Assembly (NCBI GenBank): GCA_964611275.1
Contig: CAZSZS010000107.1
Location: forward strand, 4,720 to 68,719
Origin: an uncultured Eubacteriales bacterium
Lineage (GTDB): Bacteria; Acidobacteriota; Aminicenantia; Aminicenantales; Aminicenantaceae
Reading direction: 5' to 3'
DNA length: 64,000 bases
Each line of letters starts with the position of its first letter. Positions within the stretch are counted from its first letter, which is position 1. Of this stretch, positions 20,077 to 63,740 are shown one piece after another. The position numbers and the translations under genes were made by a program. The notes beneath the pieces were generated by a model that was not told the origin of the DNA, did not search any database, and saw nothing but the letters and a program-made list of their open reading frames with translations.

Positions 20077-20383
20077 ACGTTCCTCCTTTTAGGGAATGTT
20101 AGGGTTTGTGAAAATAAGGAAATATCATATACCATTATTTTATTTTAATGTGTTACTCTTACCAAACGTCCGGTTATGTGTCAAGAAGAAGTTCGCTGGA
20201 AGGGAATATTCCGGCTGGATCATCATGTGAGCCTGTGGCTAAAAGGTTATTACGATGAGACAGTGTGCGGGATTTTTTTTGATATTATCCGATTTCTGGA
20301 ACAAATCTCTTGACAAATGAATCTATATGTTCCAGAATATGGAAGTTATGAATATATCACATGAATGGATTGGAAGAAATCTT

Positions 20384-47189: not shown

Positions 47190-47537
47190 CTATTCGATTT
47201 CAAGTTCCATTTTTTCCAGATATAAATCAGTTCCGTCAAGTGTCTCCAGGTTAATGGAACCACATGAGCTGCAGTTAAGGACCAGGTCGTCTTTAATGGT
47301 CAATGCGCCGCAGTCCTTGCATTTCAGTTTAAGAGGGACTTTTTCGATTTCCAGCTCAGCCTCTGAAGCCAGGGTTTCTTTTTTGTAGATACCAAAGGCT
47401 GTCTCCAGCAGTTCCGGGACAGCTCCGGAAAGCACTCCGACTCGAAGCTTGACATAGGTGATTTTTTTGGAATTTTTTTCCTTTGCCTTCTGCTCCATGA
47501 TTTCAAACAGATTGGCGATTAGAGAAAGTTCATGCAT
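47190..47537 (-). CDS. hypA: hydrogenase Ni-insertion metallochaperone HypA
   Basis: MHE N-terminus (Ni site) and a CxxC…CxxC zinc site. Confidence 0.85.
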   Translation of the reverse strand: MHELSLIANLFEIMEQKAKEKNSKKITYVKLRVGVLSGAVPELLETAFGIYKKETLASEAELEIEKVPLKLKCKDCGALTIKDDLVLNCSSCGSINLETLDGTDLYLEKMELEIE

Positions 47538-48201
47538 TTGCCCGGCGCAGTTTTTTTAGGTTTTTTACGAGATAATCTACGAACTCTTTGATACCGGTTC
47601 CCTCAACAGAACTGATCTTGAATACTTCCAATTTCGGATTGACATCCAGGCTTTCCTGAACGGCCCGGTCTACGTTAAAGGGCATTTTATCTAAAAGGTC
47701 GGTTTTGCTGATGATAAGGGCGTCTGAAGTAAAAAACGCTTTGGGGTACTTTTTGGGTTTATCGTCTCCTTCCGGGACAGAAAGAAGCACACACCGAAGG
47801 CTTTCCCCCAGATCAAAGCTGGCAGGGCATACCAGGTTACCGACATTTTCTATAAACAGAAGATCCAGGTCAGCAGGGATTTCTGAGAATACTTTACCGA
47901 CCATTTTTGCATCCAGATGACAGGCGCCTCCGGTAGATATCTGCCATGCTTGAATCCCTTTTGCTCTTATTCTCTCTGCATCCCTTTCGGTTTCAATGTC
48001 CCCTTCTATCACTGCCATTTTATAACCGGGGGTGAGGACTTCTGAGAGATTTTCAAGCAGGGATGTTTTGCCTGCTCCGGGAGAGCTGAGGAGATTGATG
48101 GCAAGAATTCCCTTTTCAGATAATTTTCTCCTGATATCTCCGGCTATTTTCTTGTTTGAACCAAGCAGGTCTTCCAAAACCATGACTTCTTGTTTTTTCA
48201 T
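47530..48201 (-). CDS. hypB: hydrogenase Ni-incorporation GTPase HypB
   Basis: P-loop (SSPGAGKTSL), CH motif, and SIMIBI GTPase fold. Confidence 0.85.
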   Translation of the reverse strand: MKKQEVMVLEDLLGSNKKIAGDIRRKLSEKGILAINLLSSPGAGKTSLLENLSEVLTPGYKMAVIEGDIETERDAERIRAKGIQAWQISTGGACHLDAKMVGKVFSEIPADLDLLFIENVGNLVCPASFDLGESLRCVLLSVPEGDDKPKKYPKAFFTSDALIISKTDLLDKMPFNVDRAVQESLDVNPKLEVFKISSVEGTGIKEFVDYLVKNLKKLRRANA

Positions 48202-48374: not shown

Positions 48375-49493
48375 TCAGCCTTTTGTCTCCTTGTGTTTGG
48401 GGAGAGACACAGAAAACGTGCTTCCTTTTCCCGGAGTGCTCGAGACATCAATAGTGCCCGAATGAGCATCTATTATTTTTTTTGATATGGAAAGTCCCAA
48501 TCCTGAGCCTTTCCCTTGCTTGCTTACGTTCCGGTTGACCCGAAAAAACTGATTGAAGAGCTGGGGAATATGTTTTTCTTCTATTCCCACACCGGTGTCT
48601 TTGATGTCAGTGATGATATACCCATCCTTTTCCCTGAACGATATTTTTACCGAACCGTTTGGTTTGTTGTATTTGACCGCATTGTTCATCAGGTTTGCGA
48701 ACGCCTGTTCCAGAGTTTCCTCGTCTCCCCTGACCGTGCTCTTTCCTGTGGGAGGTTCGATCTCAAGATTTATTTTATTCTTTTCTGCAACAGGCTGCAG
48801 AAATTCGATCTGTTTTTTTAAAAGAGCGAAAAGGGAGACCTGTTTGAATTTTTCCACAAGCTGCCCCTTATCGATCCGGGCCGCATCAAGCCAGTCATTG
48901 ATAAGTTCCAGCAGGCTTTCGACTCTGTTTCTGGCTTTGGATAACATGTCTTTATGCTCTTTTGACATCTCTCCCACAGAACCTGAGAGCATGACCTCAA
49001 AGTACTGGGCAATGGCAACCAGGGGGCTTCTGAGCTGATGGGATACCATTGTGATGAAGTTTTCTTCTATGCGCTTTTTTTCTTTCCTGAGCGATTCAGC
49101 TTCCCTGGACAGCTTTATTTTTTCCAGGCCTCTTTTTATGATGACCCTGAGTTGTTCGGGGGTAAAAGGTTTGGGAAGAAAGTCATATGCGCCTTTTTTC
49201 ATGGCCTCTACGGCTGACTCGACTGTTGCGTAACCTGTAATGACGATCGGAACGGTATCCGGGGATATTTCTCTTATTTTTTCAATCACATCCAAGCCGC
49301 CGATGCCGGGCATTTTTAAGTCAACCAGCGCAATGTCCGGTTTCATTTCTTCTACTTTTTCAAGACCTTTTTTTCCGTCTTCTGCTGTTTCGGTGAGGAA
49401 ACCGTCTTTTTCAAGTATCATACGGCAGGAATCACGCATTGATTCTTCATCGTCTATAACTACGGTAGAATGATTTTTTTTCTGCATGAACAC
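48375..49493 (-). CDS. hybrid response-regulator/histidine kinase (REC-HisKA-HATPase_c)
   Basis: N-terminal receiver domain (Asp in VDLKMPG), H-box (HQLRSPL), and N/G boxes. Confidence 0.8.
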   Translation of the reverse strand: MFMQKKNHSTVVIDDEESMRDSCRMILEKDGFLTETAEDGKKGLEKVEEMKPDIALVDLKMPGIGGLDVIEKIREISPDTVPIVITGYATVESAVEAMKKGAYDFLPKPFTPEQLRVIIKRGLEKIKLSREAESLRKEKKRIEENFITMVSHQLRSPLVAIAQYFEVMLSGSVGEMSKEHKDMLSKARNRVESLLELINDWLDAARIDKGQLVEKFKQVSLFALLKKQIEFLQPVAEKNKINLEIEPPTGKSTVRGDEETLEQAFANLMNNAVKYNKPNGSVKISFREKDGYIITDIKDTGVGIEEKHIPQLFNQFFRVNRNVSKQGKGSGLGLSISKKIIDAHSGTIDVSSTPGKGSTFSVSLPKHKETKG

Positions 49494-49567: not shown

Positions 49568-52500
49568 TCAGGCCCGAAAAATACCTTCTATCTCAGCAAT
49601 GATTTGTGTGTCAGAGAAATGCTTGGCTGTAGAGGCTGAGGACGGACATGCTGACACACAGGTCCCGCATCCTTTGCAGAGGGCTTCGTTCACAACAGAT
49701 ACGCTTCTTTCTTCATCAAAGCTTATGGCTCCGTAGGGACATAGATTGTTGCACAGCCTGCAGCCCGCGCAGAGCTCCGGATCGATTTCAGCTTGAATGG
49801 GTTCGAGTTCTATTTGACCTTTGGAGATATTGGATAATATTCTTGCTGCGGCTGAGCTTGCTTGAGCTACCGAATCTGGAATATCCTTGGGCCCCTGACA
49901 GCATCCGGCAATATAGACTCCGTCTGTCGCCGTACTTGTCGGATCAAGCTTGGGATGTTTTTCAAGAAAGAAGCCGTCAGGGCTTCGGCTTATGGAAAAG
50001 AGCCTTGCCGTTTTTTCCACATCACGCTGCGGTTCTATAGCGTTGCAGAGAATGACCATATCTACCGGTATTTCCCTGTATTTTTTTATCAGAGTATCTT
50101 CACATTTGATGATAAGCGGTTCTGTCCCGTTATCAGAATGCCCGGCTCTAATGACTTCTGATACTTTTCCCCTTATAACGTTTACATCTTCATCGAGTAT
50201 CCTTGAATAGAATTCTTCATATCCTTTTCCGAATGAACGCATATCAATATAGAACTGATAGACTTCCGCATTTGATCTGTCTTTTATTAGATGAGCGAAT
50301 TTAAGGGCGTACATGCAGCATACACGGGAGCAGTATGGATGAAAGTTGATATCTCTGGATCCAACACAATGTATGATACCTATGGCCCTGGGTTCTTTTC
50401 CTTCTTTGGTCACAATAGTGCCTTTAGTCGGCCCGGTGGAGCTCACGATCCTTTCAAACTCCAGGCTTGTGTACACATTATCGAACTCTCCGTATCCGTA
50501 AGGAGTGAGAGCTTTTGAATCAAGAGTGTCATACCCTGTAGTCAAAAGAATCTGGCCGACATTGATCTCTTCTATTTCATCTGCCATACCATGGTCAATG
50601 GCCTGGGCTTCACAAACGGTTTCACAAACATGGCACTCAACGCAGAGTCCGCAGTTCAGGCATCTCGAGGCTTCTTTTGTTGCTTCTTCTTCGGAATAGC
50701 CCAGTTCCACTTCTTCGAAAGTGTAACGCCGCTTTTCAGGATCAAGCGCTTTCATTTCGGTGCGGTCCTTTTTAGGCAGATTCTTGAAAGGAAGGGAATA
50801 CCTGTGGGGCCGATCGTTTTCGTCTCGTTCAGGAAGGGAGTTACACTTTCTTGTTTTAAAATCACTTAGGGGTTCACCCTTGATGAATTTATCAATCACT
50901 TCAGCGGCTCGTTTTCCGTCCCCCATGGCTGTTATAACGGCATCTGGACCGCGAGCCACGTCTCCTCCTGCGAAAACTCCTTTTATTTCAGTTTCCATGG
51001 TATCCGGGTTGATATCAATGGTATTCCATTTCGTAAGTTTGAGATGGGCTTCTTTTTCAGCGTAATTGATTTCAGGTGACTGGCTGACTGCAATAATGAT
51101 GGTATCAATTTTCAGATCATACTCGCTGCCTTTTATGGGTATGGGACGCCGCCTTCCGCTTGAGTCAGGTTCTCCGAGTTCCATTTTTATACATTTCATT
51201 CCCGTTACTTTTCCGGATTTCCCTAAAACTTCGACAGGAGCAGTCAGATACTTTATACGGACCCCTTCTGCCTCGGCAGCCTGGATTTCAGCTTCTTCAG
51301 CAGGCATTTCTTTTCGTGTTCTTCTGTAAAGTATGGTCACTTCATCGGCTTTAAGGCGCAGGGCGGTCCTGGCTGCGTCAATAGCTGTGTTTCCTCCTCC
51401 GATGATGGCCACATTTTTTCCAACCGGTTGAGGTTTTTGAAGGCTTATATTGCGGAGAAAATCAACTCCGTGATAAACTCCTTCGTATTCTTCTTCTCCG
51501 GGAATATCCATTTTTCTGCTGCTGTGGGCACCTGTGGCTATATACACAGCCTGGTACCCCATCTTTTTCAGGGCTTTGATGTCAAAGTCTTTACCCAGAG
51601 CTTTATTTGTCTTTATATCCACACCCAGTTTTTTGATGTATTCTATATCTCGCTTAAGGATTTTCTTTGGGAGCCTGTATTCCGGAATTCCTACCGTGAG
51701 CATACCGCCTTCAACAGGGAGCTTTTCAAAGATGGTGACATCGTATCCTTTTAAGGCCAGGTCATGGCCGCACACAAGGCCTGACGGGCCTGAACCGATG
51801 ATAGCAATTTTTTCTTCTCTTTTCTTCTTGATTTCTGGGGGGTCAGGTTCTCCTTTATTCTCAAATTCCCAATCAATGGCATATCTTTTAAGATTTTTTA
51901 TGGAAACCGCCTTGTCCACAAATTTACGGTTGCATTCTGATTCACACGGGTGGTAGCAGACACGACCGCAGACACTGGGAAGAGCATTTTGCTGCCTTAT
52001 GAGACGGGCTGCTTCCTCAAAGCGCCCCTTTGAGATAAGAGTCACATAGCCTGCGGCTTCCTGGTCGATGGGACAGGTTTCGCGGCACGGAGGCCTGCTG
52101 TCTTTATCAATGACATAGGTATTGGGGATTGCCTGGGGAAAGGTTTTATATATGGCAGAACGTAAAGACTGGTTCTCTTCAAAAGGATTGGGGATGCTGA
52201 TCGGACACGCCTCGGAACATTCTCCGCAGGATGTGCAGTCATCTTTGACGAAACGGGCTTTCTTCCGTACTTTGACCGTGAAATTTCCTATGGATCCCTC
52301 CACTTCTTCCACTTCACTCAAGCTTAGGAGCTTGATATTTTTGTTTTGGGCAACAGATACCATTTTCGGAGTAAGGATACAAGCGGAGCAGTCAAGAGTT
52401 GGGAATGTTTTGTCAAATTTAGCCATTTTACCGCCTATAGTGGATTCTTTTTCTACTAAATAGACGTTATTTCCTGATTCAGCTATCTCTATAGCGGCTT

Positions 52501-52972
52501 GTATTCCGGCAATGCCGGCTCCCACTATCAAAGTGTCTGGATTGACATTAACCTTTACCGGTTCGAGAGGCTGTTGAAGGGCCACTCTGTTTACGGCCGC
52601 TCTTATAAGGGAAGTGGCTTTTTTCGTGGCGCTTTCAATATCTTTATGAATCCAAGAACACTGCTCTCTTATATTGACCATCTGGAACAGATACCGGTTC
52701 ACACCTGCTTTTTCACAGGCCATCCTGAATGTGGGTTCGTGCATTAAAGGGGAGCAGGAAGCGACGATGATCCGGTTCAGCCCCATTTCTTTGATGTCCT
52801 TCATGATAAGGTCCTGTCCGGGTTCAGAACACATGAATTTGTAGTCACGGACAACTTGTACATTTGGCTCATTTTTTATGGCATCGCGCGATTTTTCCAC
52901 ATCTACGGTGGCTGCTATGTTAGATCCACAGTGACATATATAAACCCCTATTTTTATGTTGTTGTCAGTCAT
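49568..52972 (-). CDS. HdrA-like heterodisulfide reductase flavoprotein with inserted GltD-like NAD(P)H domain (HdrL-type), 1134 aa
   Basis: HdrA N-terminal Cys cluster (IGVYICHCGSNIA). FAD motif (GAGIAGIQAA). Inserted ferredoxin. GltD-like 4Fe-4S region with a second dinucleotide fold (IIGSGPSGLVCGHDLA, IIGGGNTAIDAA). HdrA-type CSRVCC motif. C-terminal 2x[4Fe-4S] ferredoxin. Confidence 0.8.
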   Translation of the reverse strand: MTDNNIKIGVYICHCGSNIAATVDVEKSRDAIKNEPNVQVVRDYKFMCSEPGQDLIMKDIKEMGLNRIIVASCSPLMHEPTFRMACEKAGVNRYLFQMVNIREQCSWIHKDIESATKKATSLIRAAVNRVALQQPLEPVKVNVNPDTLIVGAGIAGIQAAIEIAESGNNVYLVEKESTIGGKMAKFDKTFPTLDCSACILTPKMVSVAQNKNIKLLSLSEVEEVEGSIGNFTVKVRKKARFVKDDCTSCGECSEACPISIPNPFEENQSLRSAIYKTFPQAIPNTYVIDKDSRPPCRETCPIDQEAAGYVTLISKGRFEEAARLIRQQNALPSVCGRVCYHPCESECNRKFVDKAVSIKNLKRYAIDWEFENKGEPDPPEIKKKREEKIAIIGSGPSGLVCGHDLALKGYDVTIFEKLPVEGGMLTVGIPEYRLPKKILKRDIEYIKKLGVDIKTNKALGKDFDIKALKKMGYQAVYIATGAHSSRKMDIPGEEEYEGVYHGVDFLRNISLQKPQPVGKNVAIIGGGNTAIDAARTALRLKADEVTILYRRTRKEMPAEEAEIQAAEAEGVRIKYLTAPVEVLGKSGKVTGMKCIKMELGEPDSSGRRRPIPIKGSEYDLKIDTIIIAVSQSPEINYAEKEAHLKLTKWNTIDINPDTMETEIKGVFAGGDVARGPDAVITAMGDGKRAAEVIDKFIKGEPLSDFKTRKCNSLPERDENDRPHRYSLPFKNLPKKDRTEMKALDPEKRRYTFEEVELGYSEEEATKEASRCLNCGLCVECHVCETVCEAQAIDHGMADEIEEINVGQILLTTGYDTLDSKALTPYGYGEFDNVYTSLEFERIVSSTGPTKGTIVTKEGKEPRAIGIIHCVGSRDINFHPYCSRVCCMYALKFAHLIKDRSNAEVYQFYIDMRSFGKGYEEFYSRILDEDVNVIRGKVSEVIRAGHSDNGTEPLIIKCEDTLIKKYREIPVDMVILCNAIEPQRDVEKTARLFSISRSPDGFFLEKHPKLDPTSTATDGVYIAGCCQGPKDIPDSVAQASSAAARILSNISKGQIELEPIQAEIDPELCAGCRLCNNLCPYGAISFDEERSVSVVNEALCKGCGTCVSACPSSASTAKHFSDTQIIAEIEGIFRA

Positions 52973-53844
52973 CTTTGTACCTCTCTTGATATTTTTTCTG
53001 GTTCAAAAGGTATGAGTGAACGGTTGAGGCCCAGCTCGCGGGGAGAGCCACCCAGAGCGTGACCGACGATCTGTGTGAAAAAAAGTACGGGGATCTTAAA
53101 ATCCGTTTCAAATTTTTTATTTATTTTGTTTTGATAGGCTTCCAAGTTGATCTGGCAGAGGGGGCAGGTTGTGATAATTATATCCGCGCCGTTTTCTTTA
53201 GCGCACTCCAGAAGTTTTTTATTGAGGCCCAGACCCACATCAGGATAGGTCGTCATGAGCATCCCGCCGCAGCACTGAGTCTTCATTGGGAAGTAGACAT
53301 TTTTAGCTCCAAGGGCTTCACACAGATCGTCCATCATCTGTGGATTGTCTTGATCGTCCAGTCCCCTTTCAGGTCTCACTATCTGGCAGCCGTAGTATTG
53401 AGCGATCTTTAGGCCTTCCAGGGATTTTTTTGCTTTGGCGGCTATCGTCTCGATGCCCACATCGTTAACCAGGACTTCAAGAGGATGCCTGACCTCGACA
53501 CTTAGATTATACCCGAGTCCTACTTTTCTTAAAGCTTGATTGACTTTTTCCCTCAGGATGCGGTTGTTTTTCAGGATATGATTTGTCTTATAAAGGATCG
53601 TATAGCAGGAACTGCATGGTGCTATGATATCCAGTCCTTTTTTTTCAGCAATAGCCAGGTTTCTGGCAGATATGACAAGAGATATAGTCTCTTTTGTGGC
53701 CATGTAATACGTGGCCCCGCAGCAGTTCCAGTCATCTATTTCTATGAGTTCATGTCCTAACTCATTGAAGACATAGTGCACAGATTCATCATATCCTTTC
53801 GCTGATGCCTCTAGGCTGCATCCCGGATAATAAGAGTAATTCAT
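52969..53844 (-). CDS. HdrB-like subunit (two CCG domains)
   Basis: CCGATYYMA and CCGGMLMTT cysteine-rich (CCG) motifs. Confidence 0.85.
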   Translation of the reverse strand: MNYSYYPGCSLEASAKGYDESVHYVFNELGHELIEIDDWNCCGATYYMATKETISLVISARNLAIAEKKGLDIIAPCSSCYTILYKTNHILKNNRILREKVNQALRKVGLGYNLSVEVRHPLEVLVNDVGIETIAAKAKKSLEGLKIAQYYGCQIVRPERGLDDQDNPQMMDDLCEALGAKNVYFPMKTQCCGGMLMTTYPDVGLGLNKKLLECAKENGADIIITTCPLCQINLEAYQNKINKKFETDFKIPVLFFTQIVGHALGGSPRELGLNRSLIPFEPEKISREVQR

Positions 53845-53897: not shown

Positions 53898-54521
53898 TTA
53901 TGATTCCTGCATGGGAATAATATTTTCTACTATCTCTGCTTCCTTAAGTATTTTGGAAAAATTTTTTTTGTGTTTTATTTTTCTGGGGAAAAACCCTATC
54001 CTGCCGTTTTTAGCTAATTTTAAAAACAGAGGGATCATTCCTAAAAGTTTAAATGGATTTGTTCTTAAATAGTAAGCAACTAAAAGACCTGGTTCATAAC
54101 TCAGACCTAAATGGTTTACAAGCCAGACAAAAGAATTGGACAGCGCATAAACAGGGAATTTTTTTGGAAAAATTTCGTTTTCTATAGCCAGCCTTTTCAG
54201 TGTGTAAATAATATCTGTGACTTTAACTCCCTGAGGACACCGGACAGTACAGGAGTAGCAGGAAGCACAGATCCAGATGGTTCTGCTCGAGAGTATGGTA
54301 TCGATATCTTTCGCTCTGAAAAGGGCAATGATTTCCCTTGGCGTTATATCCATGGTATAGCTGACAGGACATGTAGCTGTGCATGTGCCGCACTGGATGC
54401 ATTTTTTTATACTTTCTCCACCCGGGATATTTTGTACTTGGAGCAGGAAAGAATTTCTTAGTTCTTTTTCTTTTTCATTGAGTATGCCAGGTAATATCTG
54501 GCCTGCCTTCCCTTTGGTCAT
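53898..54521 (-). CDS. HdrC-like 2x[4Fe-4S] ferredoxin subunit
   Basis: CIQCGTCTATCP and CASCYSCTVRCP cluster motifs. Confidence 0.8.
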   Translation of the reverse strand: MTKGKAGQILPGILNEKEKELRNSFLLQVQNIPGGESIKKCIQCGTCTATCPVSYTMDITPREIIALFRAKDIDTILSSRTIWICASCYSCTVRCPQGVKVTDIIYTLKRLAIENEIFPKKFPVYALSNSFVWLVNHLGLSYEPGLLVAYYLRTNPFKLLGMIPLFLKLAKNGRIGFFPRKIKHKKNFSKILKEAEIVENIIPMQES

Positions 54522-54925
54522 TTTTTCAGAAGCCTCTCTATGCGTTCGATCAGGTCGTCAGCTTTGACAGGTTTATCTATATAGTCGTCCGGTCCTTCCA
54601 TTCCTTCTTTATCTCCTTTGAATTGGAATCTGGAGCCGGTTACTTCTTTGACTGCAGAAATAAAAATCACAGGTGTGTTTTGGGCGGACTTGAATTCTTT
54701 TGAGGTTTTTATGGCATGACACAATGAGAATCCGTCAAAAAGACTGTCCATCATAATATCCAGAAGAATAAGATCAGGTTTTTCAGATAGGATTTTTTTC
54801 TTTCCTTCTTCGGGATTAGAAGCTGTGATGGCATCATAAGATGCGGAATGAAGGATTGGAGTGATAGCATCTCTGAAATCGGGATCGTCATCGATGATTA
54901 AAATTTTTGCTTTTGCTTTTTCCAT
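54518..54925 (-). CDS. single-domain response regulator (CheY-like REC)
   Basis: DD…D…K receiver residues. No output domain. Confidence 0.8.
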   Translation of the reverse strand: MEKAKAKILIIDDDPDFRDAITPILHSASYDAITASNPEEGKKKILSEKPDLILLDIMMDSLFDGFSLCHAIKTSKEFKSAQNTPVIFISAVKEVTGSRFQFKGDKEGMEGPDDYIDKPVKADDLIERIERLLKK

Positions 54926-54937
54926 TTTATTTCTCCT

Positions 54938-55309
54938 TTATTTACTGAAAGCATTTTTAATTGCCAGTTTTAATTCTTCCTTTCCAAATGATTTTATAAA
55001 ATAATAAAAGATATCTTGTTCTCTTACTTTCGCCTCTAATTCTTTCGTATTTTTTTTGGTTGTCATTATGACTTTTGTATCCGAGTCTATATTTTTTATT
55101 ATGGAAACAGCTTCGTATCCTTTCATCTCTGGAAGTTCGACCGCCATTATAGCACAATGAAAATGATTGGATGTGATTTTTTTTATGGCATCTGTAAGCC
55201 CTTTTCCTGTTTCTACTTGATACTCTTTTTGTTGAAGAAAGGATAATAATGATTTTCTGTCTTTCTCATCAGGGTCAATTATGAGAATTTTTTTCTTAAG
55301 ATTTTTCAT
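54938..55309 (-). CDS. single-domain response regulator (CheY-like REC)
   Basis: Receiver-domain fold. No output domain. Confidence 0.8.
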   Translation of the reverse strand: MKNLKKKILIIDPDEKDRKSLLSFLQQKEYQVETGKGLTDAIKKITSNHFHCAIMAVELPEMKGYEAVSIIKNIDSDTKVIMTTKKNTKELEAKVREQDIFYYFIKSFGKEELKLAIKNAFSK

Positions 55310-55342
55310 TTATAATATCCTTGCATTGTACATTGAGTATAA

Positions 55343-55358
55343 CTGCAATAATTGTGCC
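55343..55358 (-). promoter_or_regulatory. sigma-54 promoter TGGCAC-AATTA-TTGCA (-24/-12)
   Basis: Minus-strand TTGGCACAATTATTGCAG has canonical GG-N10-GC spacing. Lies about 35 nt upstream of the first REC gene start (55309). Confidence 0.6.
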
Positions 55359-55475
55359 AAATCTAAATTTACTTTTCTGCATTTGTAAATATCTTTTAAG
55401 TCTTTAAAAACAAAAAAGTTAATACATTTTCAACTCAAAAAAAACAAAAAAACATTCTACATATATCCACCATAT

Positions 55476-55494
55476 GAGTGGAAATATTCCACAC
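55476..55494. promoter_or_regulatory. palindromic upstream activator site AGTGGAAATATTCCACAC
   Basis: 6-3-6 perfect inverted repeat (GTGGAA-ATA-TTCCAC) about 125 bp upstream of the sigma-54 promoter. The same motif recurs at 60354..60372. Confidence 0.45.
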
Positions 55495-55541
55495 AGTGTA
55501 TGAACATGCCCCAGACAGGAGAACATTCATCAGTTGTAAGT

Positions 55542-55569
55542 GAAGGGCTTGTCAGGAGACAAGCCCTTC
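55542..55569. terminator. strong hairpin GAAGGGCTTGTC-agga-GACAAGCCCTTC downstream of the hydrogenase large-subunit gene
   Basis: 12-bp perfect stem. No long U-tract. Confidence 0.45.
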
Positions 55570-55705
55570 GTATAAAATATTTATGAAAAAGAAAACCGTC
55601 CAGAGGTGATATAGATTGATACAGGAAAAAACAGGTGGGAAGTTATTTGTTGAGGAAACACTATCCTATGATGGCCACCTCTAAGGACGATTCTTCTCAT
55701 CGGTT

Positions 55706-57448
55706 TTAATTCTTCAAATGGTTTATGATTTCAAGGACAGCCTTTTGTACTGGGGGACTTAATTTATTTCCCGGGGCTACTGAATCCGGCTGTATCCCTA
55801 CTACATACGCATTTTTTTGCATGGACAGATTTTTAATGCTTGATATAAATGGTATGAATTTATGGCTCACACTGGATTGGCTGAGGATGTATTCCAAAGG
55901 AAGAACGGTTATCTTGCCTGCTTTTTCATTAAAATCAACCGCATCAAAGAAAACGAGAGGTTTCTTTTCGCTGGAGCTTTTCAGGCTGTCGTTTCTGATT
56001 ATTTCTGATTCAAGCCATACATCTTTAAATCCGAGACCGCATAGTTTTTTTGCTATATCAATACCGCAGCCGTCGTCACTGCGGTCTTCCTTTCCAGCCC
56101 CTATATAGATTGGTGTTCTGTCTTTCCTTATCTCTTCCAGTTTGTTTTTCCAGTTTCCGGAGGGAGCGTGTGTGACTTTAGCCAAATGGGCGGAGCAGCT
56201 GATACAGGGGTCAAAGGCCCTGACAACGATTTCCATTCTTTGTTTGATCTCATCTTCTTTTCCTGAATCAAGGAGATTTTGGGCAGCGATGTGGCAGTAC
56301 TTCTCGATATCTTCCGCATTCTGGGCCGTAGGGGTCACGATGTCCACATAGGAAATGCGTCCATCGCTGATTTCATGATGATGGATGAGAAGCCCTCTTG
56401 GGGCTTCCACCAGTCCTGTTCCTTTTCCGTTTTTTGCCGTGTATTTGACGGGCTTTGGGGTTTCTTCAAACTTGAGGATTTCATCCACCAGTTCTATGAT
56501 CCTTTCAAAACAGTAACTGATTTCCAGAGCCTGGGCGGCATTATGAAACAAGGGATTGACTTCCCAGCGTTTATTGAAATATTTTTTATACATTTTCCCT
56601 GTTTCACCCTTGAACCTTTTCCCTAAGTTGTTGACTCTGGCTAAGGCTCCTACAGAGTAAGGCTTTCCTTTGTAGCGGCTGCGCTTGCAAAAGGAATGAG
56701 AAACAACAAACTCGTTCGTGAGTTTTTGGTAATCGTCTCTAAAGAATTTTTCGCCTGTGGAAAGCATTATTTCGTCTCCCCAGAATCCATAGTTGTTATT
56801 CCCTGGTTCACAGCAGGCATAGATGGTTTCTTTTTCGGGGACTTCGGGATAATCAAGAGTGCAGAAGAGATCGACGGTCTTTTTAACAAAGGGCATGAAT
56901 TGGACTGCTCTGTTTTTTATAAAGACAAGTTCCTCTAGGGATGGGAATGCGCCGAAACCACCGATGATGGGATTTTCGCCGTGAATATAACGCCCGCTCA
57001 GGACTTTCATGACATGGTTGGCAAAATGCTTCATCTCCAGAGCGATTTTGACTTCAAGTTCGAAGTCCGATGCCATGGCTATGGCATTGGGATATCCCAA
57101 GTAATCAGGGAGAGCAAGGTAGTATGTGTGAAGAGAATGGCTTTCGATCATTTCTCCCATATGCATGAGTTCTCTGCAGAGATAGGATTTGGGATGTATT
57201 TTAATATTAAGTGCGTTTTCCATAGACCGGAGAACTGCGTTTTTATGTGAAAGAGTGCAGATGGCACATATCCGGGGAGACATACTGACATCTTCTTCAG
57301 GAGTTAGGCCGATGGTCAGCTTTTCTATGAGGCGGGGGCCTTCATATATACTGAATTTAACGTCTGATACAACTTTTCCGTCAATGGTGGCTGATATGCC
57401 ACCGTTTCCTTCAACTCTGGCTAGATGGTCTACACTTATCTTTTTCAT
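55706..57448 (-). CDS. [NiFe]-hydrogenase large (alpha) subunit, group 3, fused at its C-terminus to a hydrogenase maturation endopeptidase (HycI/HybD-like) domain
   Basis: N-terminal RICAICTLSH (RxCxxCxxxH) and C-terminal DPCISCSAH Ni-Fe site motifs. The additional ~150 aa after the His carry protease-family motifs (IYIGAGKEDRSDDGCGI, FFDAVDF, SxH). Confidence 0.85.
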   Translation of the reverse strand: MKKISVDHLARVEGNGGISATIDGKVVSDVKFSIYEGPRLIEKLTIGLTPEEDVSMSPRICAICTLSHKNAVLRSMENALNIKIHPKSYLCRELMHMGEMIESHSLHTYYLALPDYLGYPNAIAMASDFELEVKIALEMKHFANHVMKVLSGRYIHGENPIIGGFGAFPSLEELVFIKNRAVQFMPFVKKTVDLFCTLDYPEVPEKETIYACCEPGNNNYGFWGDEIMLSTGEKFFRDDYQKLTNEFVVSHSFCKRSRYKGKPYSVGALARVNNLGKRFKGETGKMYKKYFNKRWEVNPLFHNAAQALEISYCFERIIELVDEILKFEETPKPVKYTAKNGKGTGLVEAPRGLLIHHHEISDGRISYVDIVTPTAQNAEDIEKYCHIAAQNLLDSGKEDEIKQRMEIVVRAFDPCISCSAHLAKVTHAPSGNWKNKLEEIRKDRTPIYIGAGKEDRSDDGCGIDIAKKLCGLGFKDVWLESEIIRNDSLKSSSEKKPLVFFDAVDFNEKAGKITVLPLEYILSQSSVSHKFIPFISSIKNLSMQKNAYVVGIQPDSVAPGNKLSPPVQKAVLEIINHLKN

Positions 57449-58227
57449 TTTGACTCCTTTTTAAATTGTTTCAAAAAATCGATCAGCTTTGTGCCTGAAT
57501 AATTAGCCATTCGTTTCTTTATGGATTCAATGTCAAACCCTTTTTCCTGTAAAAGATAATATTCAGAGGTGAAATTGGCCCCTTCCACATGTCCCCAGCA
57601 ACCGAAGCAGGGCACATTGTGATTCGGACATATGGAGCCGCACCCATCTGCTGTCAGGGGGCCCAAGCAGGGGATTCCTTTATTTAAAAGGCAGTCATTC
57701 TCATTGTATTTGCATGTGACACAGACTGGCCGCGGATATCTTTCCGGAAGACTCCCTTTTACAGCCCGGGTAAAGAGGTCGAGAAACTGTTCTTTCCCAA
57801 TAGGACAGCCAGGGAGATAATGATCTACTTTTATATAAGCATCTATGGGCTTGGACTGGACAGGTTTGGTGTGGGTCATCTCTATATCTCCGTAGACTTC
57901 CTTGTATTTCTTTTTCCACTCATTTGGGTCGGTGAATCTTGCCTGTATGCCACCGACAGTAGCGCACAGTCCTATGGCGATCACGATTTCAGCTCTTTCT
58001 CTTATGTCTTTGAGCTCTTCGATCTCTCTTTCTGTGCTCACAGAGCCTTCTACCAGAGCGATGTCAAGCTTTCCATCTATGTTCTCACTGCTAGCCATGA
58101 GAAAGGACTGTATGTCCACAGCTTTAAATATATCAAGCAGTTCTTTTTCGCAGTCAAGAATGAGTAAAGCATCTCCGGCACATCCTGTTAACTCATAAAT
58201 TCCGATTTTTAATTTTCCATTATTCAT
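57445..58227 (-). CDS. [NiFe]-hydrogenase small (delta) subunit, group 3
   Basis: IGIYELTGCAGD proximal-cluster motif and C-terminal Cys clusters. No selenocysteine. Confidence 0.85.
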   Translation of the reverse strand: MNNGKLKIGIYELTGCAGDALLILDCEKELLDIFKAVDIQSFLMASSENIDGKLDIALVEGSVSTEREIEELKDIRERAEIVIAIGLCATVGGIQARFTDPNEWKKKYKEVYGDIEMTHTKPVQSKPIDAYIKVDHYLPGCPIGKEQFLDLFTRAVKGSLPERYPRPVCVTCKYNENDCLLNKGIPCLGPLTADGCGSICPNHNVPCFGCWGHVEGANFTSEYYLLQEKGFDIESIKKRMANYSGTKLIDFLKQFKKESK

Positions 58228-58237
58228 TGTATCCCCC

Positions 58238-59098
58238 TTAGATGAGCTCTCTCATATGAGTGACATCCCAGTATGTGAAAACAGGGCCGTCTAGACATGT
58301 GTAAATGTAGTCTATGGCGCAGTGTCCGCATTTGCCGACACCGCATTTCATACGTCTTTCAAGAGTCATCAGGATCTGGTCCTTTGGTATATTGAGTTTT
58401 AACAGTTCACTAAGGACAAATTTATACATAACAGGGGGACCGCAAACCAGACTGTAAGTGGTTGATGGATTTATATTCTTTATTTTTGGGAAAAGAGTGG
58501 TCACTACCCCGATGTTTTCCGTCCATTTCCCTGTATCGTCTTGATCCACAGAAAGGAAGCATTCTAAGTCCTCTCGTTCCTTCAGCGAGAGAAATTCTTC
58601 TCTGAGTAGCATTTCCGCCGGTCTTTTGGCTCCGTGCAGGAGAATCACCCTGCCGAACTGGTCCCGATTATCAAGGCAGTAGAGCAGAACTGAGCGAAGG
58701 GGGGCTGCTCCGAGACCGCCCATAACGATCAAGATGTCCTTTCCTTTCATTTGCTCCACAGGAAATCCGTTGCCGTAAGGGCCTCTGATTCCAATCATGT
58801 CGTTTTCTTTAAGCCGGAAGATAGCATCGGTGACTATGCCCGTCCTGCGGATACAGAATTCAAGGAGTCCCGGCCGGGAAGGAGTGGATGAGATTGAAAA
58901 AGGAGCCTCTCCGGCTCCGAGAACGGAGATCATGGCAAACTGCCCGATTCTGTATCTAAAGGAAAGAGCTTTTTCCATATCAGCGATCCGGACTTGAAAG
59001 AATTTGACGTCTTCGGTCAGATGATAGGCACGGACTATTCTTGCTGGTTCAGGGAGAAATGGATTCTCTGTTTGGTTGGCTTTGTTTTCACTGTTCAT
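58238..59098 (-). CDS. hydrogenase gamma subunit: FAD/NAD(P)-binding oxidoreductase with C-terminal [2Fe-2S] (HydG/AsrB/PyrK-like)
   Basis: Ferredoxin-NADP-reductase-like fold and a CGVGKCGHC cluster. Confidence 0.8.
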   Translation of the reverse strand: MNSENKANQTENPFLPEPARIVRAYHLTEDVKFFQVRIADMEKALSFRYRIGQFAMISVLGAGEAPFSISSTPSRPGLLEFCIRRTGIVTDAIFRLKENDMIGIRGPYGNGFPVEQMKGKDILIVMGGLGAAPLRSVLLYCLDNRDQFGRVILLHGAKRPAEMLLREEFLSLKEREDLECFLSVDQDDTGKWTENIGVVTTLFPKIKNINPSTTYSLVCGPPVMYKFVLSELLKLNIPKDQILMTLERRMKCGVGKCGHCAIDYIYTCLDGPVFTYWDVTHMRELI

Positions 59099-60156
59099 TT
59101 TGTCACCTCTTTGCTTAATCTCTTCCAGAAGGCATCCACTTTTTCTCCATCCAAGGATTTGCCTACTGTTTTTACATTTATGTCAACAGGGCAGGTAGCC
59201 ACACATCTGCCGCAGCCTACACAGCCAGGTTTGCCGTACTTTGATATATAAGCCTGAAGTTTATGTGTGTACCATAGTTTCAGCCTGTCAGCGCGCTTTT
59301 TTCTGAAATTTTCTCCTCCTGCTACCTCAGAATAACTTTCTAAGGTACAGGCATCCCAACATCTTTTTATGTCCGAATATTCTTTCTCCAGAGCAGGCCT
59401 GTCTGCCACATTATAGCAGTTGCAGGTAGGGCATACGTTTGAACAGGATCCACAGGCCAAACAGGCATTTCCTAACTCTTCCCACATGGGATCATTGTAC
59501 ATGAGTTCCAAGAGATCACCCAGGGAGTCAAAGTTTATTTCTGTTTTAAAGGCATTCTCTCTTTGATCGCACCATTCAGCGTATTCCTCTATGTCTTTGT
59601 CAGATATGCCTTCTTCAAAGAGATCTGCCTTTGTCCTTATGAGGTCATCCCCTTTGCTGGAACCGATCCACACAATGTATCTTCCTTTAAGTTCGGAAAA
59701 AAAGAGGTCATATCCTTCTTTGATGATATGGGTTCTTGTCGATTTGCACAGGCAGTTTTCATCAGGCCAGCAGGAATGTCCCAGGAGGAGAGTGTTTTTT
59801 CTGGATTCCATGTAATAGGGGTCATAGAATTCATGAGTGAAAAAGTCGTCCATTATCAGAATGCCGTGAATATCACAGGGGTGGATGCCAAAGATTATTT
59901 TTTTGGAAACGTGTGAAAAATCTTCCTTGTATTCTTTTTCAGAAGCTCGAAACATATTGATGGAAGGAGGAAGAAGGATCTTTCTGGGCGGTAGAATCGT
60001 TCTTGTACAATCAGTATCAATTTTATTCAAATCCTGAATGGCTTCGAATTTATGTCTATCCGGTGCAACTTTTACGGGAGCCCATAGATCTGCTTCCTTG
60101 GAAATCTCTTCTAGGAAAGAAGGTAAATTGTCTTCCTTTAGTTTTACGATTTTCAT
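59095..60156 (-). CDS. hydrogenase beta subunit: 2x[4Fe-4S] protein (HydB/AsrA-like)
   Basis: CLACGSCSNVCPTC and CVGCGRCVATCP motifs. The beta-gamma-delta-alpha gene order matches sulfhydrogenase-type group 3b enzymes. Confidence 0.75.
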   Translation of the reverse strand: MKIVKLKEDNLPSFLEEISKEADLWAPVKVAPDRHKFEAIQDLNKIDTDCTRTILPPRKILLPPSINMFRASEKEYKEDFSHVSKKIIFGIHPCDIHGILIMDDFFTHEFYDPYYMESRKNTLLLGHSCWPDENCLCKSTRTHIIKEGYDLFFSELKGRYIVWIGSSKGDDLIRTKADLFEEGISDKDIEEYAEWCDQRENAFKTEINFDSLGDLLELMYNDPMWEELGNACLACGSCSNVCPTCNCYNVADRPALEKEYSDIKRCWDACTLESYSEVAGGENFRKKRADRLKLWYTHKLQAYISKYGKPGCVGCGRCVATCPVDINVKTVGKSLDGEKVDAFWKRLSKEVTK

Positions 60157-60225
60157 TTAAGGTGTCCTTTGATGTTCATAGAATTTTTTATAAAAAAGTA
60201 AGCATCACTCATCCGTTTGTCATTA

Positions 60226-60241
60226 TGCAAATTATGTGCCT
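60226..60241 (-). promoter_or_regulatory. sigma-54 promoter AGGCAC-ATAAT-TTGCA (-24/-12)
   Basis: Minus-strand GG-N10-GC with a TTGCA -12 box, about 70 nt upstream of the beta-subunit start. Confidence 0.55.
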
Positions 60242-60353
60242 ATTGAATGGCAAAATGGCCATTTTTTGATAAAGATCTAAATCATTGAATTAAAAGGAAG
60301 TAGGCGGTTTTGTTTCGATAAGTGGAAAATCGCTTGAATAAAAAAACGAAATT

Positions 60354-60372
60354 GTGTGGAAAAATTCCACAC
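60354..60372. promoter_or_regulatory. palindromic upstream activator site GTGTGGAA-AAA-TTCCACAC
   Basis: Perfect 8-3-8 inverted repeat about 125 bp upstream of the sigma-54 promoter. A half-site AAGTGGAAAAT lies at 60320..60330. Confidence 0.45.
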
Positions 60373-60412
60373 TAGGTGTTTAGATATGACATAGGTAGAT
60401 GCGGGGTTTTGA

Positions 60413-61774
60413 TCACCTGATCTTGTGTTTTTTTATTTTTGAATAAAGAGTCTTTCTGTCTATTCCAAGAATTTTTGCTGTTTTGCTTTTGTTCCCATGT
60501 TGAGATTTGAGGACAGATTCCATGTATTCTTTTTCAATTTCTTCTAATGTTTTATATTTTCCTCCTGTCGGGAGAATCATGGAGCGGGAAGTGCTTATCC
60601 CATGATAGATGAGGTCATCCAATTCAACTTTTTTACTTCTTGTCAGCACCATGGCTCTCTCTATGGTGTTTTGGAGTTCTCTTATGTTTCCGGGCCAATC
60701 ATAGTCCATAATGGCCTTTTTCGCTTCAGTTGTGAAACCTTTGATGTCTTTGGATAATTTTTGATTGTATTTATGAAGGAAATGTTCGAAGAGCGGGGGA
60801 ATGTCTTCTTTCCTTTCCCTCAAAGGAGGTATGTTTATGGGGACCACACTCAGGCGGTAGAAGAGGTCTTCCCTGAATTTATTCTGTTTCACACGTTCGG
60901 CAAGGCTTACATTAGTGGCGGCAAGTATACGGATATCGACTTTAATGGATTTGGTACTTCCGATTCTGGTGACCTCCCGTTCCTGAATGACTCTGAGGAG
61001 TTTTGCTTGTATATTCATGCTGATATTGCTTATTTCATCCAGGAATATGGTGCCGCCGTCTGCCACTTCAAACCGACCGTGCTTGGTTACATGAGCACCC
61101 GTAAAAGAACCTTTGACATGACCGAAGAGCTCGCTCTCAAAGAGAGTCTCAACCAGTGCTCCGCAGTCGACCACAACAAATGGAGCCTGTTTTCTTTTGC
61201 TGTGTTTGTGTATTTCTGAGGCCAGAAGTTCTTTCCCGGTCCCGCTTTCTCCGGTGATGAGGACCGTGCTTTCAGTGGGGCTGACTCTTTTCATAATGTC
61301 TATGACCTTTTCCATTGAGGTGCTTTTTCCCACGACCATAGACAGTTTATTCTGTTCAGGGTCTTTACTTTGTGCAAAACCTGCTTTAGCCTCAGTTGTG
61401 TTTAGGGCTTTTTTCACTATTGTGCGCAGCTCTTCCGGGCTGAAAGGTTTAGCCAGATAGTCAAAGGCTCCCTGCTTGATGGTATTGACAGCGGATTCTA
61501 TGGAAGCAAATCCGGTGATGATTATGACCGGAACCTCCGGTGTGGATTTTATTATTTTTTTCAGGATATTGATTCCTGGAATTCCCGGGAGTTTGAGATC
61601 CAGCAGAATGACATCGAATCCGGATTTATTTAATATGTTTACAGCCTCTCGTCCATCCGAAGAAGTCTGGACCTCGTACCCGTCTTTCGTAAGAACCTGG
61701 GTACAGGAATCCCTTATGGATTCTTCATCGTCAATGATAAATATTCTTACTTTCTTAGTCTTTTTCGGGTTCAT
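60413..61774 (-). CDS. sigma-54-dependent response regulator (NtrC family: REC + AAA+ sigma-54 activator + Fis-type HTH)
   Basis: Receiver Asp, Walker A (GESGTGKE), GAFTGA-like loop (GSFTGA), and a C-terminal HTH. Confidence 0.9.
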   Translation of the reverse strand: MNPKKTKKVRIFIIDDEESIRDSCTQVLTKDGYEVQTSSDGREAVNILNKSGFDVILLDLKLPGIPGINILKKIIKSTPEVPVIIITGFASIESAVNTIKQGAFDYLAKPFSPEELRTIVKKALNTTEAKAGFAQSKDPEQNKLSMVVGKSTSMEKVIDIMKRVSPTESTVLITGESGTGKELLASEIHKHSKRKQAPFVVVDCGALVETLFESELFGHVKGSFTGAHVTKHGRFEVADGGTIFLDEISNISMNIQAKLLRVIQEREVTRIGSTKSIKVDIRILAATNVSLAERVKQNKFREDLFYRLSVVPINIPPLRERKEDIPPLFEHFLHKYNQKLSKDIKGFTTEAKKAIMDYDWPGNIRELQNTIERAMVLTRSKKVELDDLIYHGISTSRSMILPTGGKYKTLEEIEKEYMESVLKSQHGNKSKTAKILGIDRKTLYSKIKKHKIR

Positions 61775-63740
61775 TTTTTATAGGTAGTATGACAATAAAC
61801 GTGGAACCTTCACCTACTTTGCTTTGGACCTCTATGGTTCCTTTATGCTTTCTTATGAAACTGTAACTGATGGCAAGACCCAGACCTGTTCCTTTGCCGA
61901 CCTCTTTGGTTGTAAAAAAAGGTTCGAAAAGCCTGCTTTTTACATCTTCAGGAATCCCGGGCCCGGTATCCCGGAAATGAATATAGAGGGTATTGTTATG
62001 CCTATCGATTCCGGTTTTTATGGTCAGAGACCCATTTCCTTCCATTGCTTCTGCGGCATTTATGATTATGTTGATAAAGACCTGCTGGAGTTGAGCGCTG
62101 TCAGCTGTGATTTTCGGAAGGGAAGAAGAGTATTCCTTTTTGATTGTGATATTTTGAAAGAGGGTTTTGGTTTCCATAATAGAGAGTGCTTTTTCCAAGA
62201 CATCGTTTATATTGATCAGGCTTGTCTCAGGGTCTTTGGGACGGGCAAACTCAAGCAGTCCTTTCACGATTTCTTTACACCTTGTTGTTTCTTTGACTAT
62301 TTTTCTTAGATTATCGTAATAAGGTATGTCTTTGTCCAAGTCTTCCAGGATCAGATGGCTGTATATGAGTATTCCTCCGAGAGGATTGTTGATTTCGTGG
62401 GCCACTCCTGCGGCCAGTTTTCCGAGAGAGGCTAGTTTTTCAGACTGAATAAGATGGGCCTGCATTTCTCTCAGTTCTTTGGTGCGCTCTTCCACTTTCT
62501 TTTCAAGTGTTTTTCCCCATTCCAACAATTTTTTGTTTGCCGCATCAAGGTCTTCGGTCATTTTGTTAAATGATTCAGCAAGGTAGCCTATTTCGTCTGT
62601 TGAGTCCACGTTGACTTTATGAGAGAGATCTCCTTTTGCGATTTTCCGGGTGGCCTCGACTATTTTGAACAGAGGATCCGTGATTTTGTTTGTGAAAAAG
62701 TAGAGAAGCACAAGCAGCAGGACCACGCATAAAGAGGCCATCAGGATGAACGTCATCATCACTTTTTGGGCTGTGTCGATGTACGGCTTTTCAAGCATGC
62801 CCACATACAGGATCCCTATGATATGATTTTTTGAGTTTTTTATGGGTTCATAGGCTGTGATGTACCAGTCATTAACCACAAAGGCTCTGTCAATCCATGA
62901 TTTGCCTTCCTTTAGTACGGCATCATTGACTTTTTTGGATACCCTGGTTCCAAGAGCTCTTGAACCGTCACTGTTTTCAACGTTGGTTGATATGCGGAGG
63001 TCATGCTGGAATATTGTGGCGGTCCCTATTTCCTTCCCTTTATATTTTTCCTCTTTATAGACTATTTCCTTGACTCTGTCCACGATTTCATAGTTCCTGT
63101 TTATGAGCACTCCCCCATACAAAACTCCAAGAAGATTGTTATCTTCATCCAGAATAGGAGAGGCGGCTTTCAGAATCATCCCGCTTGTCTCTTTATTTTT
63201 GGTTGACTCTGCTGCCTTGGGTGTTAGCTTGATCTCTATGACAGCCTTTTCAGCGAGATCTTTTCCTTCTCTTAATAGGAGTTCTCTAGAAATTATCTGA
63301 GGGGATGCGGCGACTTCCTTTGATAAGGCTCTCTCTATTATTTCGTCTTGGGATCTGTCATCTCCTGTTATGCTGGGATTTCGTGTCCTTATGATGACAA
63401 TTCCTTTGGGATCTGTCACATTAAGTATATCCAGTCTGTATTTTTTTCTCAGTTGGTTTAGGCATTCTGATATGGGAGCATAATCTTTTTTTTTCAAGCT
63501 ATCTTCAAGTCTTTCCCTTTCAGAGGTTAAGCTGACGAATTCTTTTATATCGCTCACTCTTTCGTTGAATACCATCCATGCTGATGATAGGTCGTGTTTG
63601 ACTTTATCTTGAGCCTGTGAAATGAGGGTATTCCGAATAAGTCTTGAGCCAAGAATAAGGGTTATGATGCCCCCAAGTAATATGACAAGAAGAAAGCTTA
63701 GTATTATTTTTTTTCTGATTGAAAAGTGAGGAATCTTCAT
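61755..63740 (-). CDS. sensor histidine kinase with periplasmic Cache-like domain, HAMP, HisKA and HATPase_c
   Basis: Two transmembrane segments flank an approximately 280-aa periplasmic domain. H-box (HEINNPL) and N/G1/G2 boxes. Overlaps the ntrC-like gene. Confidence 0.85.

Follow-up and report, generated by a model that had tools for sequence, protein, structure and literature searches.

How the genes of a NiFe hydrogenase and those of a second operon behind it could be switched on together is the question raised by a 64,000-nucleotide stretch of an Aminicenantes contig (CAZSZS010000107.1; this whole stretch is referred to as the window). On its minus strand, genes for a Cache-domain sensor histidine kinase and an NtrC-type activator precede a four-subunit hydrogenase operon (hydBGDA, hyd) and a second operon, which begins with two single-domain receiver (REC) genes and includes hdr genes. 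The favoured reading, to which a probability of about 0.78 is assigned, is a conventional two-component sigma-54 enhancer circuit, in which the Cache kinase would act on the NtrC-type activator and the activator on a site centred about 150 bp upstream of each predicted transcription start. The sequence and its comparison with relatives directly show the elements, how they are arranged, how well they are conserved and how they covary with the activator, as follows.

Promoters and upstream palindromes

The elements lie in two intergenic regions (IGRs), namely IGR1 between the activator gene and hydB (256 nt, with palindrome 1 and promoter 1) and IGR2 between hydA and the first REC gene (396 nt, with palindrome 2 and promoter 2):

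60376-60391, minus strand: TGTCATATCTAAACAC, a conserved TGT-N9-ACA block with its centre 21 bp upstream of palindrome 1
60354-60372: putative upstream activating site 1 (palindrome 1), GTGTGGAAAAATTCCACAC, halves GTGTGGAA-TTT-TTCCACAC
60323-60330: possible auxiliary half-site (low confidence) GTGGAAAA, 34 bp from palindrome 1 on the promoter side
60278-60290, minus strand: IHF-like element ATTCAATGATTTA, about midway between activating site and promoter
60226-60241, minus strand: sigma-54 promoter of the hyd operon, AGGCAC-ATAAT-TTGCA (AGGCACATAATTTGCA)
55476-55494: putative upstream activating site 2 (palindrome 2), GAGTGGAAATATTCCACAC, minus-strand reading GTGTGGAA-TAT-TTCCACTC
55393-55421, minus strand: IHF-like mid-spacer block TAACTT..TTTAAAGACTTA, conserved in IGR2
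55344-55359, minus strand: sigma-54 promoter of the second operon, TGGCAC-AATTA-TTGCA (TGGCACAATTATTGCA)

Both -24/-12 elements are of the TGGCAC-N5-TTGCW type, with GG and GC exactly ten bases apart, and are the only two exact matches to GGCAC-N5-TTGCA in the window (0.11 expected from shuffles). An earlier note on this DNA had described them as near-consensus promoters, which these counts and the conservation in orthologues bear out; its coordinates were right for the hyd promoter, whereas those for the second promoter (55343-55358) were one base off. The inverted repeats that it had placed at 60354-60372 and 55476-55494 are both present. Their exact core, GTGGAA-N3-TTCCAC, occurs twice in the 64 kb (55478-55492 and 60356-60370; 0.00 expected, 100 shuffles), and up to two mismatches had to be allowed for seven further matches to appear, every one with two. 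A near-copy of the core, ATGGAAAATTTCCAT at 21839-21853, lies within an open reading frame (ORF; 20327-21997) without Pfam match; no sigma-54 element is near, and this copy is probably due to chance.

Both pairs of palindrome and promoter are intergenic and on the minus strand, in the gaps before hydB and REC. The distance from the palindrome centre to the first G of the GG was measured as 123 nt (hyd) and 127 nt (REC/hdr), in agreement with the enhancer geometry of about 125 bp proposed earlier. The GC dinucleotides are located 70 nt (hydB) and 35 nt (REC) 5' of the start codons on the coding strand. Transcription is predicted to start near 60215 (hyd) and near 55333 (REC/hdr), which would give 5' untranslated regions of about 59 and 24 nt, and relative to these predicted starts the palindromes are centred at about -148 and -152. 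The auxiliary half-site GTGGAAAA is the second-best site match (7/12 positions), and GATTTTTCC is partly conserved in close relatives. The element ATTCAATGATTTA fits 12 of 13 positions of WATCAANNNNTTR, the IHF consensus.

Conservation in related Aminicenantes

Orthologous regions were taken from about 20 syntenic Aminicenantes loci with activators 62-92 % identical to that of the window (L028, 62 %; L067, 67 %; the others, 65-92 %), and were aligned with MAFFT around anchors (12 loci for IGR1, 11 loci for IGR2). Every relative examined, including L028 with the least similar activator (62 %), keeps the gene order kinase-activator-hydBGDA-REC-REC. In both alignments, three conserved islands stand out from diverged sequence: the palindrome, a mid-spacer block and the -24/-12 element. 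GGCAY-N5-TTGC is invariant across the 12 IGR1 and 11 IGR2 sequences (IGR1 in full, GGCAY-N5-TTGCA), and the palindrome centre lies 118-128 nt from the GG at both promoters of all loci, despite insertions and deletions in the spacer, except in the IGR1 of L010 (110 nt) and of L064 (113 nt). Eight orthologues have the same IGR2 core, GTGTGGAAT-N-TTTCCACT, between diverged flanks, L032 differing at the central spacer base. The position of palindrome 1 is kept in all orthologues; one half-site is often degenerate (e.g., GTGTGGAATTTCTCTACAC and CTGTAGAACATCTCCACAT). The single conserved island of the IGR1 spacer, WWTTCARNRANTTA, coincides with the IHF-like element, and the mid-spacer block in the IGR2 of L056 contains a perfect TATCAACGAGTTA.

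The second promoter is missing in L011 and L067, in which REC follows hydA directly. In L056 and L057 the second operon consists of REC-REC-(REC-kinase)-HycI-HypB-HypA and is without hdrCBL, and this absence marks hdrCBL as an insertion in the clade of the window. The earlier term "hdr operon" consequently fits the window, which has hdrCBL, and fails for L056 and L057; judged by gene content, the ancestral second target is the set of regulatory and maturation genes, with hdrCBL as a lineage-specific passenger.

In relatives (L001, L004, L005, L007, L008, L010, L056 and L057), an FeFe hydrogenase cluster of the HydABC type, with PHP, DRTGG and HATPase accessory genes, is found upstream of the kinase, and most relatives also hold an Mvh-like cluster (FlpD, small subunit, HoxH). 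With these clusters upstream, the locus is a multi-hydrogenase island, and the window stops short of that part. Neither the palindrome nor a -24/-12 element was found upstream of the kinase or upstream of the FeFe and Mvh-like clusters of the relatives.

The candidate activator and its recognition helix

The two genes upstream of hyd encode the following proteins:

61755-63740, minus strand: sensor histidine kinase with sCache_3_3, HAMP, HisKA and HATPase domains (Pfam)
60413-61774, minus strand: NtrC-type enhancer-binding response regulator with REC, sigma-54 AAA+ and HTH_8 domains

In the kinase, membrane helices at residues ~12-32 and ~327-349 enclose a periplasmic region of about 290 amino acids (aa) with the sCache_3_3 domain. 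Two sigma-70-like consensus matches are found 5' of its gene (63873-63777; pattern matches only), and the kinase-activator pair is probably transcribed from promoters of this type. The activator was assigned by Pfam (PF00072, 1.7e-31; PF00158, 1.8e-70; PF02954, 2.2e-15) and carries both Walker A (GESGTGKE) and Walker B (DEIS) motifs; its C-terminal helix-turn-helix is GNKSKTAKILGIDRKTLYSKIKK and its closest solved structure is Aquifex NtrC1 (4l4u). It scores below all curated NCBIfam equivalog cutoffs tested (bits/cutoff: AtoC, 441/714; NtrC, 438/559; ZraR, 418/760; GlrR, 368/763; FhlA, 281/830); the best model for the kinase is AtoS (264 bits, equivalog cutoff 646).

Kinase and activator genes are adjacent to each other and immediately upstream of hyd in all relatives, in keeping with the earlier proposal that these two proteins are the candidates to act on the palindromes. 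Comparison of orthologues further revealed that changes in the site track changes in the recognition helix of the activator encoded in the same locus:

Helix DRKTLYSKI, clade of the window: GTGGAA..T(T/C)CCAC at both promoters
Helix DRKTLWAK(I/L), the more distant L056, L057 and L066: GGGGAA..T(G/A)CC(C/A/T)C at both promoters
Helix DRKTLHAK, L010: intermediate, one site of each flavour
Helix DRKTLLSK, L067: GGGACA..TTCCCC

A parallel change at both promoters and in the helix is what is predicted for a single cognate binder. Among 69 other activators from metagenomes (39-48 % identical), none has the site plus promoter in its locus, and 52 have different helices.

Occurrence of the site in other genomes

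The pattern GTGGAA-N3-TYCCAC-N{100,125}-GGCAY-N5-TTGCA was searched for in 185,579 species genomes (GTDB representatives), and 44 loci were returned. Four are promoters of the Aminicenantes hyd/REC type (L013, L017, L028 and L032), and hyd and REC promoters are the only matches of this type among the GTDB representatives. Thirty-three are of a Bacteroidales type (within L012-L055) and were found in Bacteroides, Phocaeicola, Prevotella, Parabacteroides and Barnesiella. The remaining seven (Streptomyces, Roseburia, Chloroflexia, Akkermansiaceae, a gammaproteobacterium and Faecousia) have no NtrC-type activator in the locus, and five of them overlap a mechanically predicted ORF. Two metagenome-assembled genomes labelled "uncultured Eubacteriales bacterium" (L017 and L032) carry hyd/REC/hdr genes 84-95 % identical to those of the window, and a "Paratractidigestivibacter" contig (L053) is homologous to Bacteroidaceae loci; these labels probably reflect mis-binning or mislabelling.

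These counts bear on chance, that is, on two similar inverted repeats having arisen in AT-rich intergenic DNA. This reading, in whose favour nothing can be cited except the small sample of two sites, is regarded as excluded: not one of 100 shuffles contained even a single exact palindrome, the sites are kept in the roughly 20 orthologous loci, and 37 of the 44 scan loci fall into sequence families linked to enhancer-binding proteins, the other seven matching a rough chance estimate (~7).

The Bacteroidales loci resemble the window in the extended palindrome, (A)GTGTGGAA-N3-TTCCACAC(T), followed by TGGCAC-N5-TTGCA (e.g., L018:1425-1554, L024:4501-4631, L051 and L046), in an activator gene that is often immediately upstream, and in the recognition helix. 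They differ in the gap between site and promoter (100-103 nt versus 115-120 nt in Aminicenantes), in activator identity and in their unrelated targets. An NtrC-type activator, 37-43 % identical to that of the window, is encoded inside the 8-kb locus in 22 of the 33; in many cases its gene stops 0-60 nt short of the palindrome, or it sits inside the driven operon. The C terminus lies within the locus in 21 of these 22, and all 21 carry GNKSKAA.LLGIDRKT(L/I)YNK, which contains the shared LGIDRKT(L/I)YNK helix. The sites occur in several non-homologous contexts, with target operons for a small secreted protein, a TonB-dependent receptor and DUF4876, for a small secreted protein, a hybrid kinase and the activator, or for Usp and baeRF. 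In L018, L023, L025 and L034, no ORF was found on the promoter strand downstream, and these promoters may drive a small RNA or a very small protein. The motif is, then, not private to the hydrogenase locus, as activators of Bacteroidales with unrelated targets have it too, and this qualifies the earlier idea of a dedicated regulon.

At least six activator paralogue groups of Bacteroidales adjoin one palindrome consensus, each with a different target operon. We consider it possible, though rather doubtful, that GTGTGGAA-N3-TTCCACAC is a recognition "word" common to a large NtrC-type clade spanning Aminicenantes/Acidobacteriota and Bacteroidales. If so, paralogue specificity would depend on gene adjacency, on bases in the flanks or the spacer, or on deliberate cross-regulation, and not on the core site.

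One consensus for several paralogue groups is unusual for specific cognate sites, and it is one of the observations from which another protein, such as a global redox or carbon regulator or a CRP/FNR-like protein, might be taken to bind the palindrome, the activator acting from elsewhere (e.g., from TGTCATATCTAAACAC) or from solution. The 11 Bacteroidales sites (of 33) with no activator gene within 8 kb, the resemblance of TGTG..CACA to CRP sites and the second conserved block at 60376-60391, which adjoins palindrome 1, point the same way. Such a binder is nevertheless unlikely. In two phyla the site is found together with NtrC-type activator genes and, at enhancer distance, a -24/-12 element, and both sites of a genome change in step with the recognition helix of its activator. 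The block TGTCATATCTAAACAC is kept in the IGR1 of closer orthologues only and has no conserved counterpart in IGR2; the TGTCATATC block is likewise missing from IGR2 and from distant orthologues. The 6-3-6 spacing is unlike the 5-6-5 of CRP or the 5-4-5 of FNR, and a CRP/FNR-type assignment of TGTG..CACA was dropped on spacing and context.

The earlier note could not assign the palindrome to a characterised regulator, and we have fared no better: in searches of the literature for the motif itself and on Bacteroides RpoN, Desulfovibrio sigma-54, NtrC4 and HoxA/HupR, no publication was found that names this palindrome or links it to a regulator, nor was any found on the palindrome-linked activator loci of Bacteroidales.

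Observations against the enhancer circuit

Several observations weigh against the two-component enhancer circuit. The sigma-54 contact loop of the activator reads GSFTGA, one substitution from the canonical GAFTGA. No rpoN and no IHF/HU genes are present among the ORFs of the window (annotation of the whole window), the presence of a protein with a sigma-54-interaction domain implying that the organism encodes RpoN. Behind the covariation there are perhaps two or three independent changes between lineages, and the helix-turn-helix is fairly conserved family-wide (controls up to 65 % identity over 23 residues). Over the same length, 17 of 19 Bacteroidales activators are 61-74 % identical in the helix (L015 and L050, with the helix at the extreme C terminus, were left out), and since the helix motif is conserved across the whole family, helix similarity is a weak predictor of the site. 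Activators from soil metagenomes (a subset of L110-L137) have, in the helix DRKTLYNKLK (NIDRKTLYNKLKS), the recognition residues of the palindrome-linked activators, with no palindrome adjoining the gene; their targets may lie elsewhere. A recurring TGGCATAGTTTTTCC is found in these soil loci about 300 nt 3' of the stop codon.

A terminator scan, finally, flags 60372-60354 (minus strand) as an 8-bp stem with a 3-nt loop followed by AATTTCGTTT, a weak terminator pattern for the activator gene, with a hairpin of -9.3 kcal/mol located 41 nt past its stop codon; in Bacteroidales, too, the palindrome often begins 0-60 nt past that stop codon. The palindromes could on these grounds be RNA hairpins, acting on the transcripts of the activator gene and of hydA as intrinsic terminators or as stabilisers of the 3' end, and near the promoters only incidentally. 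This is, in our estimate, quite improbable. Hairpin energy is not kept among orthologous sites (-9.3 to -0.6 kcal/mol), whereas half-site sequence and promoter distance are; likewise, the palindrome lies anywhere from 0 to 177 nt past the upstream stop codon but at a fixed distance from the GG. Palindrome 2 lacks a T-run, and a separate strong, covarying hairpin before it probably already ends the hyd transcript. Moreover, the identical sequence, and not just its pairing, recurs in another phylum. Enhancer sites for an NtrC-type activator hence remain the preferred reading of both palindromes.

Genes and operons of the locus

The putative target operons and their genes, all on the minus strand, were annotated by using Pfam and NCBIfam as follows:

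55706-60156: four-subunit NiFe hydrogenase operon, sulfhydrogenase-like, group 3b-type (Pfam)
59095-60156: hydrogenase beta subunit (4Fe-4S)
58238-59098: hydrogenase gamma subunit (FAD/NAD)
57445-58227: hydrogenase delta subunit (small)
55706-57448: hydrogenase alpha subunit (large)
55542-55700: structured RNA-like element, ~160 nt, directly 3' of the hydA stop codon
47190-55309: second operon
54938-55309: REC
54518-54925: REC
53898-54521: HdrC
52969-53844: HdrB
49568-52972: HdrA/GltD fusion ("HdrL", 1134 aa)
48375-49493: REC-histidine kinase
47530-48201: HypB
47190-47537: HypA

The combination of beta, gamma, delta and alpha subunits in one operon is the group 3b architecture. The best NCBIfam models are the sulfhydrogenase subunits HydB/ShyB and HydA/ShyA, every score being under its cutoff. 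The alpha subunit carries, fused at its C terminus (residues ~449-578), a maturation protease domain of the HycI type, which L056 encodes as a separate gene downstream. The second operon includes intergenic gaps of 74 and 173 nt. Gene content was as described earlier, except that the downstream genes for the REC-kinase, HypB and HypA had not been listed.

The RNA-like element behind hydA was folded with RNAalifold, which gave 39 pairs, six of them with compensatory changes, all in or adjacent to the terminal hairpin (55542-55569; 12-bp GC stem, -21.6 kcal/mol). The hyd transcript probably ends at this hairpin. The element further comprises a 13-bp long-range helix, in which GAGAAGAAUCGUCC pairs with GGACGGUUUUCUU, two inner helices and an invariant unpaired UUCUUCCUGCAUCAAU, anti-Shine-Dalgarno-like in appearance; it is still present in L011, in which no second promoter follows. 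A search of the whole window against Rfam gave nothing at the gathering threshold, and for 55300-55720 only a meaningless IsrM match (12.7 bits). The element could be a small RNA derived from the 3' untranslated region, or a processing or stability element. A 38-codon ORF at this position was rejected, since L004 lacks a start codon for it and the RNA has a conserved fold.

The remaining window holds housekeeping and envelope genes. A XerC/D-type tyrosine recombinase (38632-39516) follows DprA and topoisomerase I, which is an ordinary housekeeping arrangement with no sign of a mobile element.

Comparison with known systems

NtrB/NtrC at glnAp2 of enteric bacteria is the textbook two-component sigma-54 enhancer. 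The window resembles it in a histidine kinase that would phosphorylate an activator of REC-AAA+-Fis-type helix-turn-helix architecture, and in palindromes more than 100 bp upstream of GG-N10-GC from which looping would occur. The NtrC consensus, TGCACC-N5-GGTGCA, is unrelated to the site of the window, however; NtrB is cytoplasmic and PII-controlled, whereas the kinase of the window is a membrane Cache sensor, and each promoter of the window has one clear dimer site in place of the two strong sites of NtrC. The best-scoring NCBIfam models for kinase and regulator are AtoS and AtoC of E. coli, likewise a membrane kinase and an NtrC-type regulator directly upstream of the sigma-54 operon that they activate. 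The inverted-repeat enhancer of AtoC lies roughly 110-150 bp upstream. Targets and sensor domain are different, and the proteins of the window score far under the equivalog cutoffs.

FhlA of E. coli acts through upstream activating sites, with IHF, at the separate promoters of hyc, hyp, fdhF and hydN-hypF. It is thus a precedent for one sigma-54 activator acting on both hydrogenase structural and hyp genes; unlike the response regulator of the window, it is a one-component activator that binds formate through a GAF domain, and its hydrogenase belongs to group 4, that of the window being group 3b-like. HoxJ/HoxA-HoxBC of Cupriavidus necator and HupT/HupR-HupUV of Rhodobacter capsulatus are H2-responsive hydrogenase regulators that also combine an NtrC-family response regulator and its cognate kinase with an upstream palindrome and hydrogenase operons. 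In these systems H2 is sensed through a regulatory hydrogenase and a soluble kinase. The sensor of the window differs from this type, being a periplasmic Cache kinase and not a regulatory hydrogenase, and this sets the circuit apart from HoxA/HupR. No sensor-type hydrogenase is adjacent, and the hydrogenases that neighbour the locus in relatives are FeFe (HydABC-like) and Mvh-like enzymes. HupR, in addition, works with sigma-70, is active when unphosphorylated and has the site TTG-N5-CAA.

Reports of NiFe hydrogenase genes under the control of sigma-54 come mainly from Proteobacteria (PMC12316311). The geometry in the window is consistent with that in Desulfovibrio, where the majority of enhancer sites are found no more than a few hundred base pairs from the promoter (PMC4641369).

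The proposed circuit and its significance

In the circuit proposed here, the membrane Cache-domain histidine kinase would sense an extracytoplasmic small molecule and phosphorylate the adjacent NtrC-type response regulator. Dimers of the activator would bind GTGTGGAA-N3-TTCCAC(A/T)C through the C-terminal Fis-type helix-turn-helix and assemble into an active AAA+ ring, and looping of the DNA would bring it to RNA polymerase-sigma-54 at the -24/-12 element, probably aided by an IHF/HU-type bend at the conserved mid-spacer block. ATP hydrolysis would then open both promoters. Promoter 1 would drive the sulfhydrogenase-type NiFe hydrogenase with its four subunits, and promoter 2 the two single-domain receiver proteins, HdrCB and the HdrA/NAD(P)H-oxidoreductase fusion, and probably the REC-kinase, hypB and hypA. 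With two promoters under one activator, the hydrogenase, its partners in maturation and electron handling and a receiver feedback layer would switch on together.

The circuit is well conserved and conventional in mechanism; the use of its motif across phyla is the most interesting lead. The helix and site that change as a pair bear on how Fis-type helix-turn-helix domains read DNA, and if the recognition word is indeed shared, the Y-to-W change in the helix and the T-to-G change in the site would constitute a natural specificity switch. The motif, apparently undescribed, also flags sigma-54 promoters beside NtrC-type regulators in human-gut Bacteroidales, the sigma-54 regulons of which are poorly charted; again if the word is shared, it would serve to predict sigma-54 regulons directly, both in Bacteroidales of the gut and in uncultured bacteria of sediments.

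Aminicenantes have no cultured model organism and are abundant in anoxic sediments and hydrocarbon-rich settings (PMC6472368). For their hydrogen metabolism, the locus offers a concrete regulatory model, in which a cytoplasmic NAD(P)-linked hydrogenase, the genes for inserting its nickel and a module of the Hdr type would respond to a cue that is probably an extracellular chemical, perceived by the Cache sensor, and not H2.

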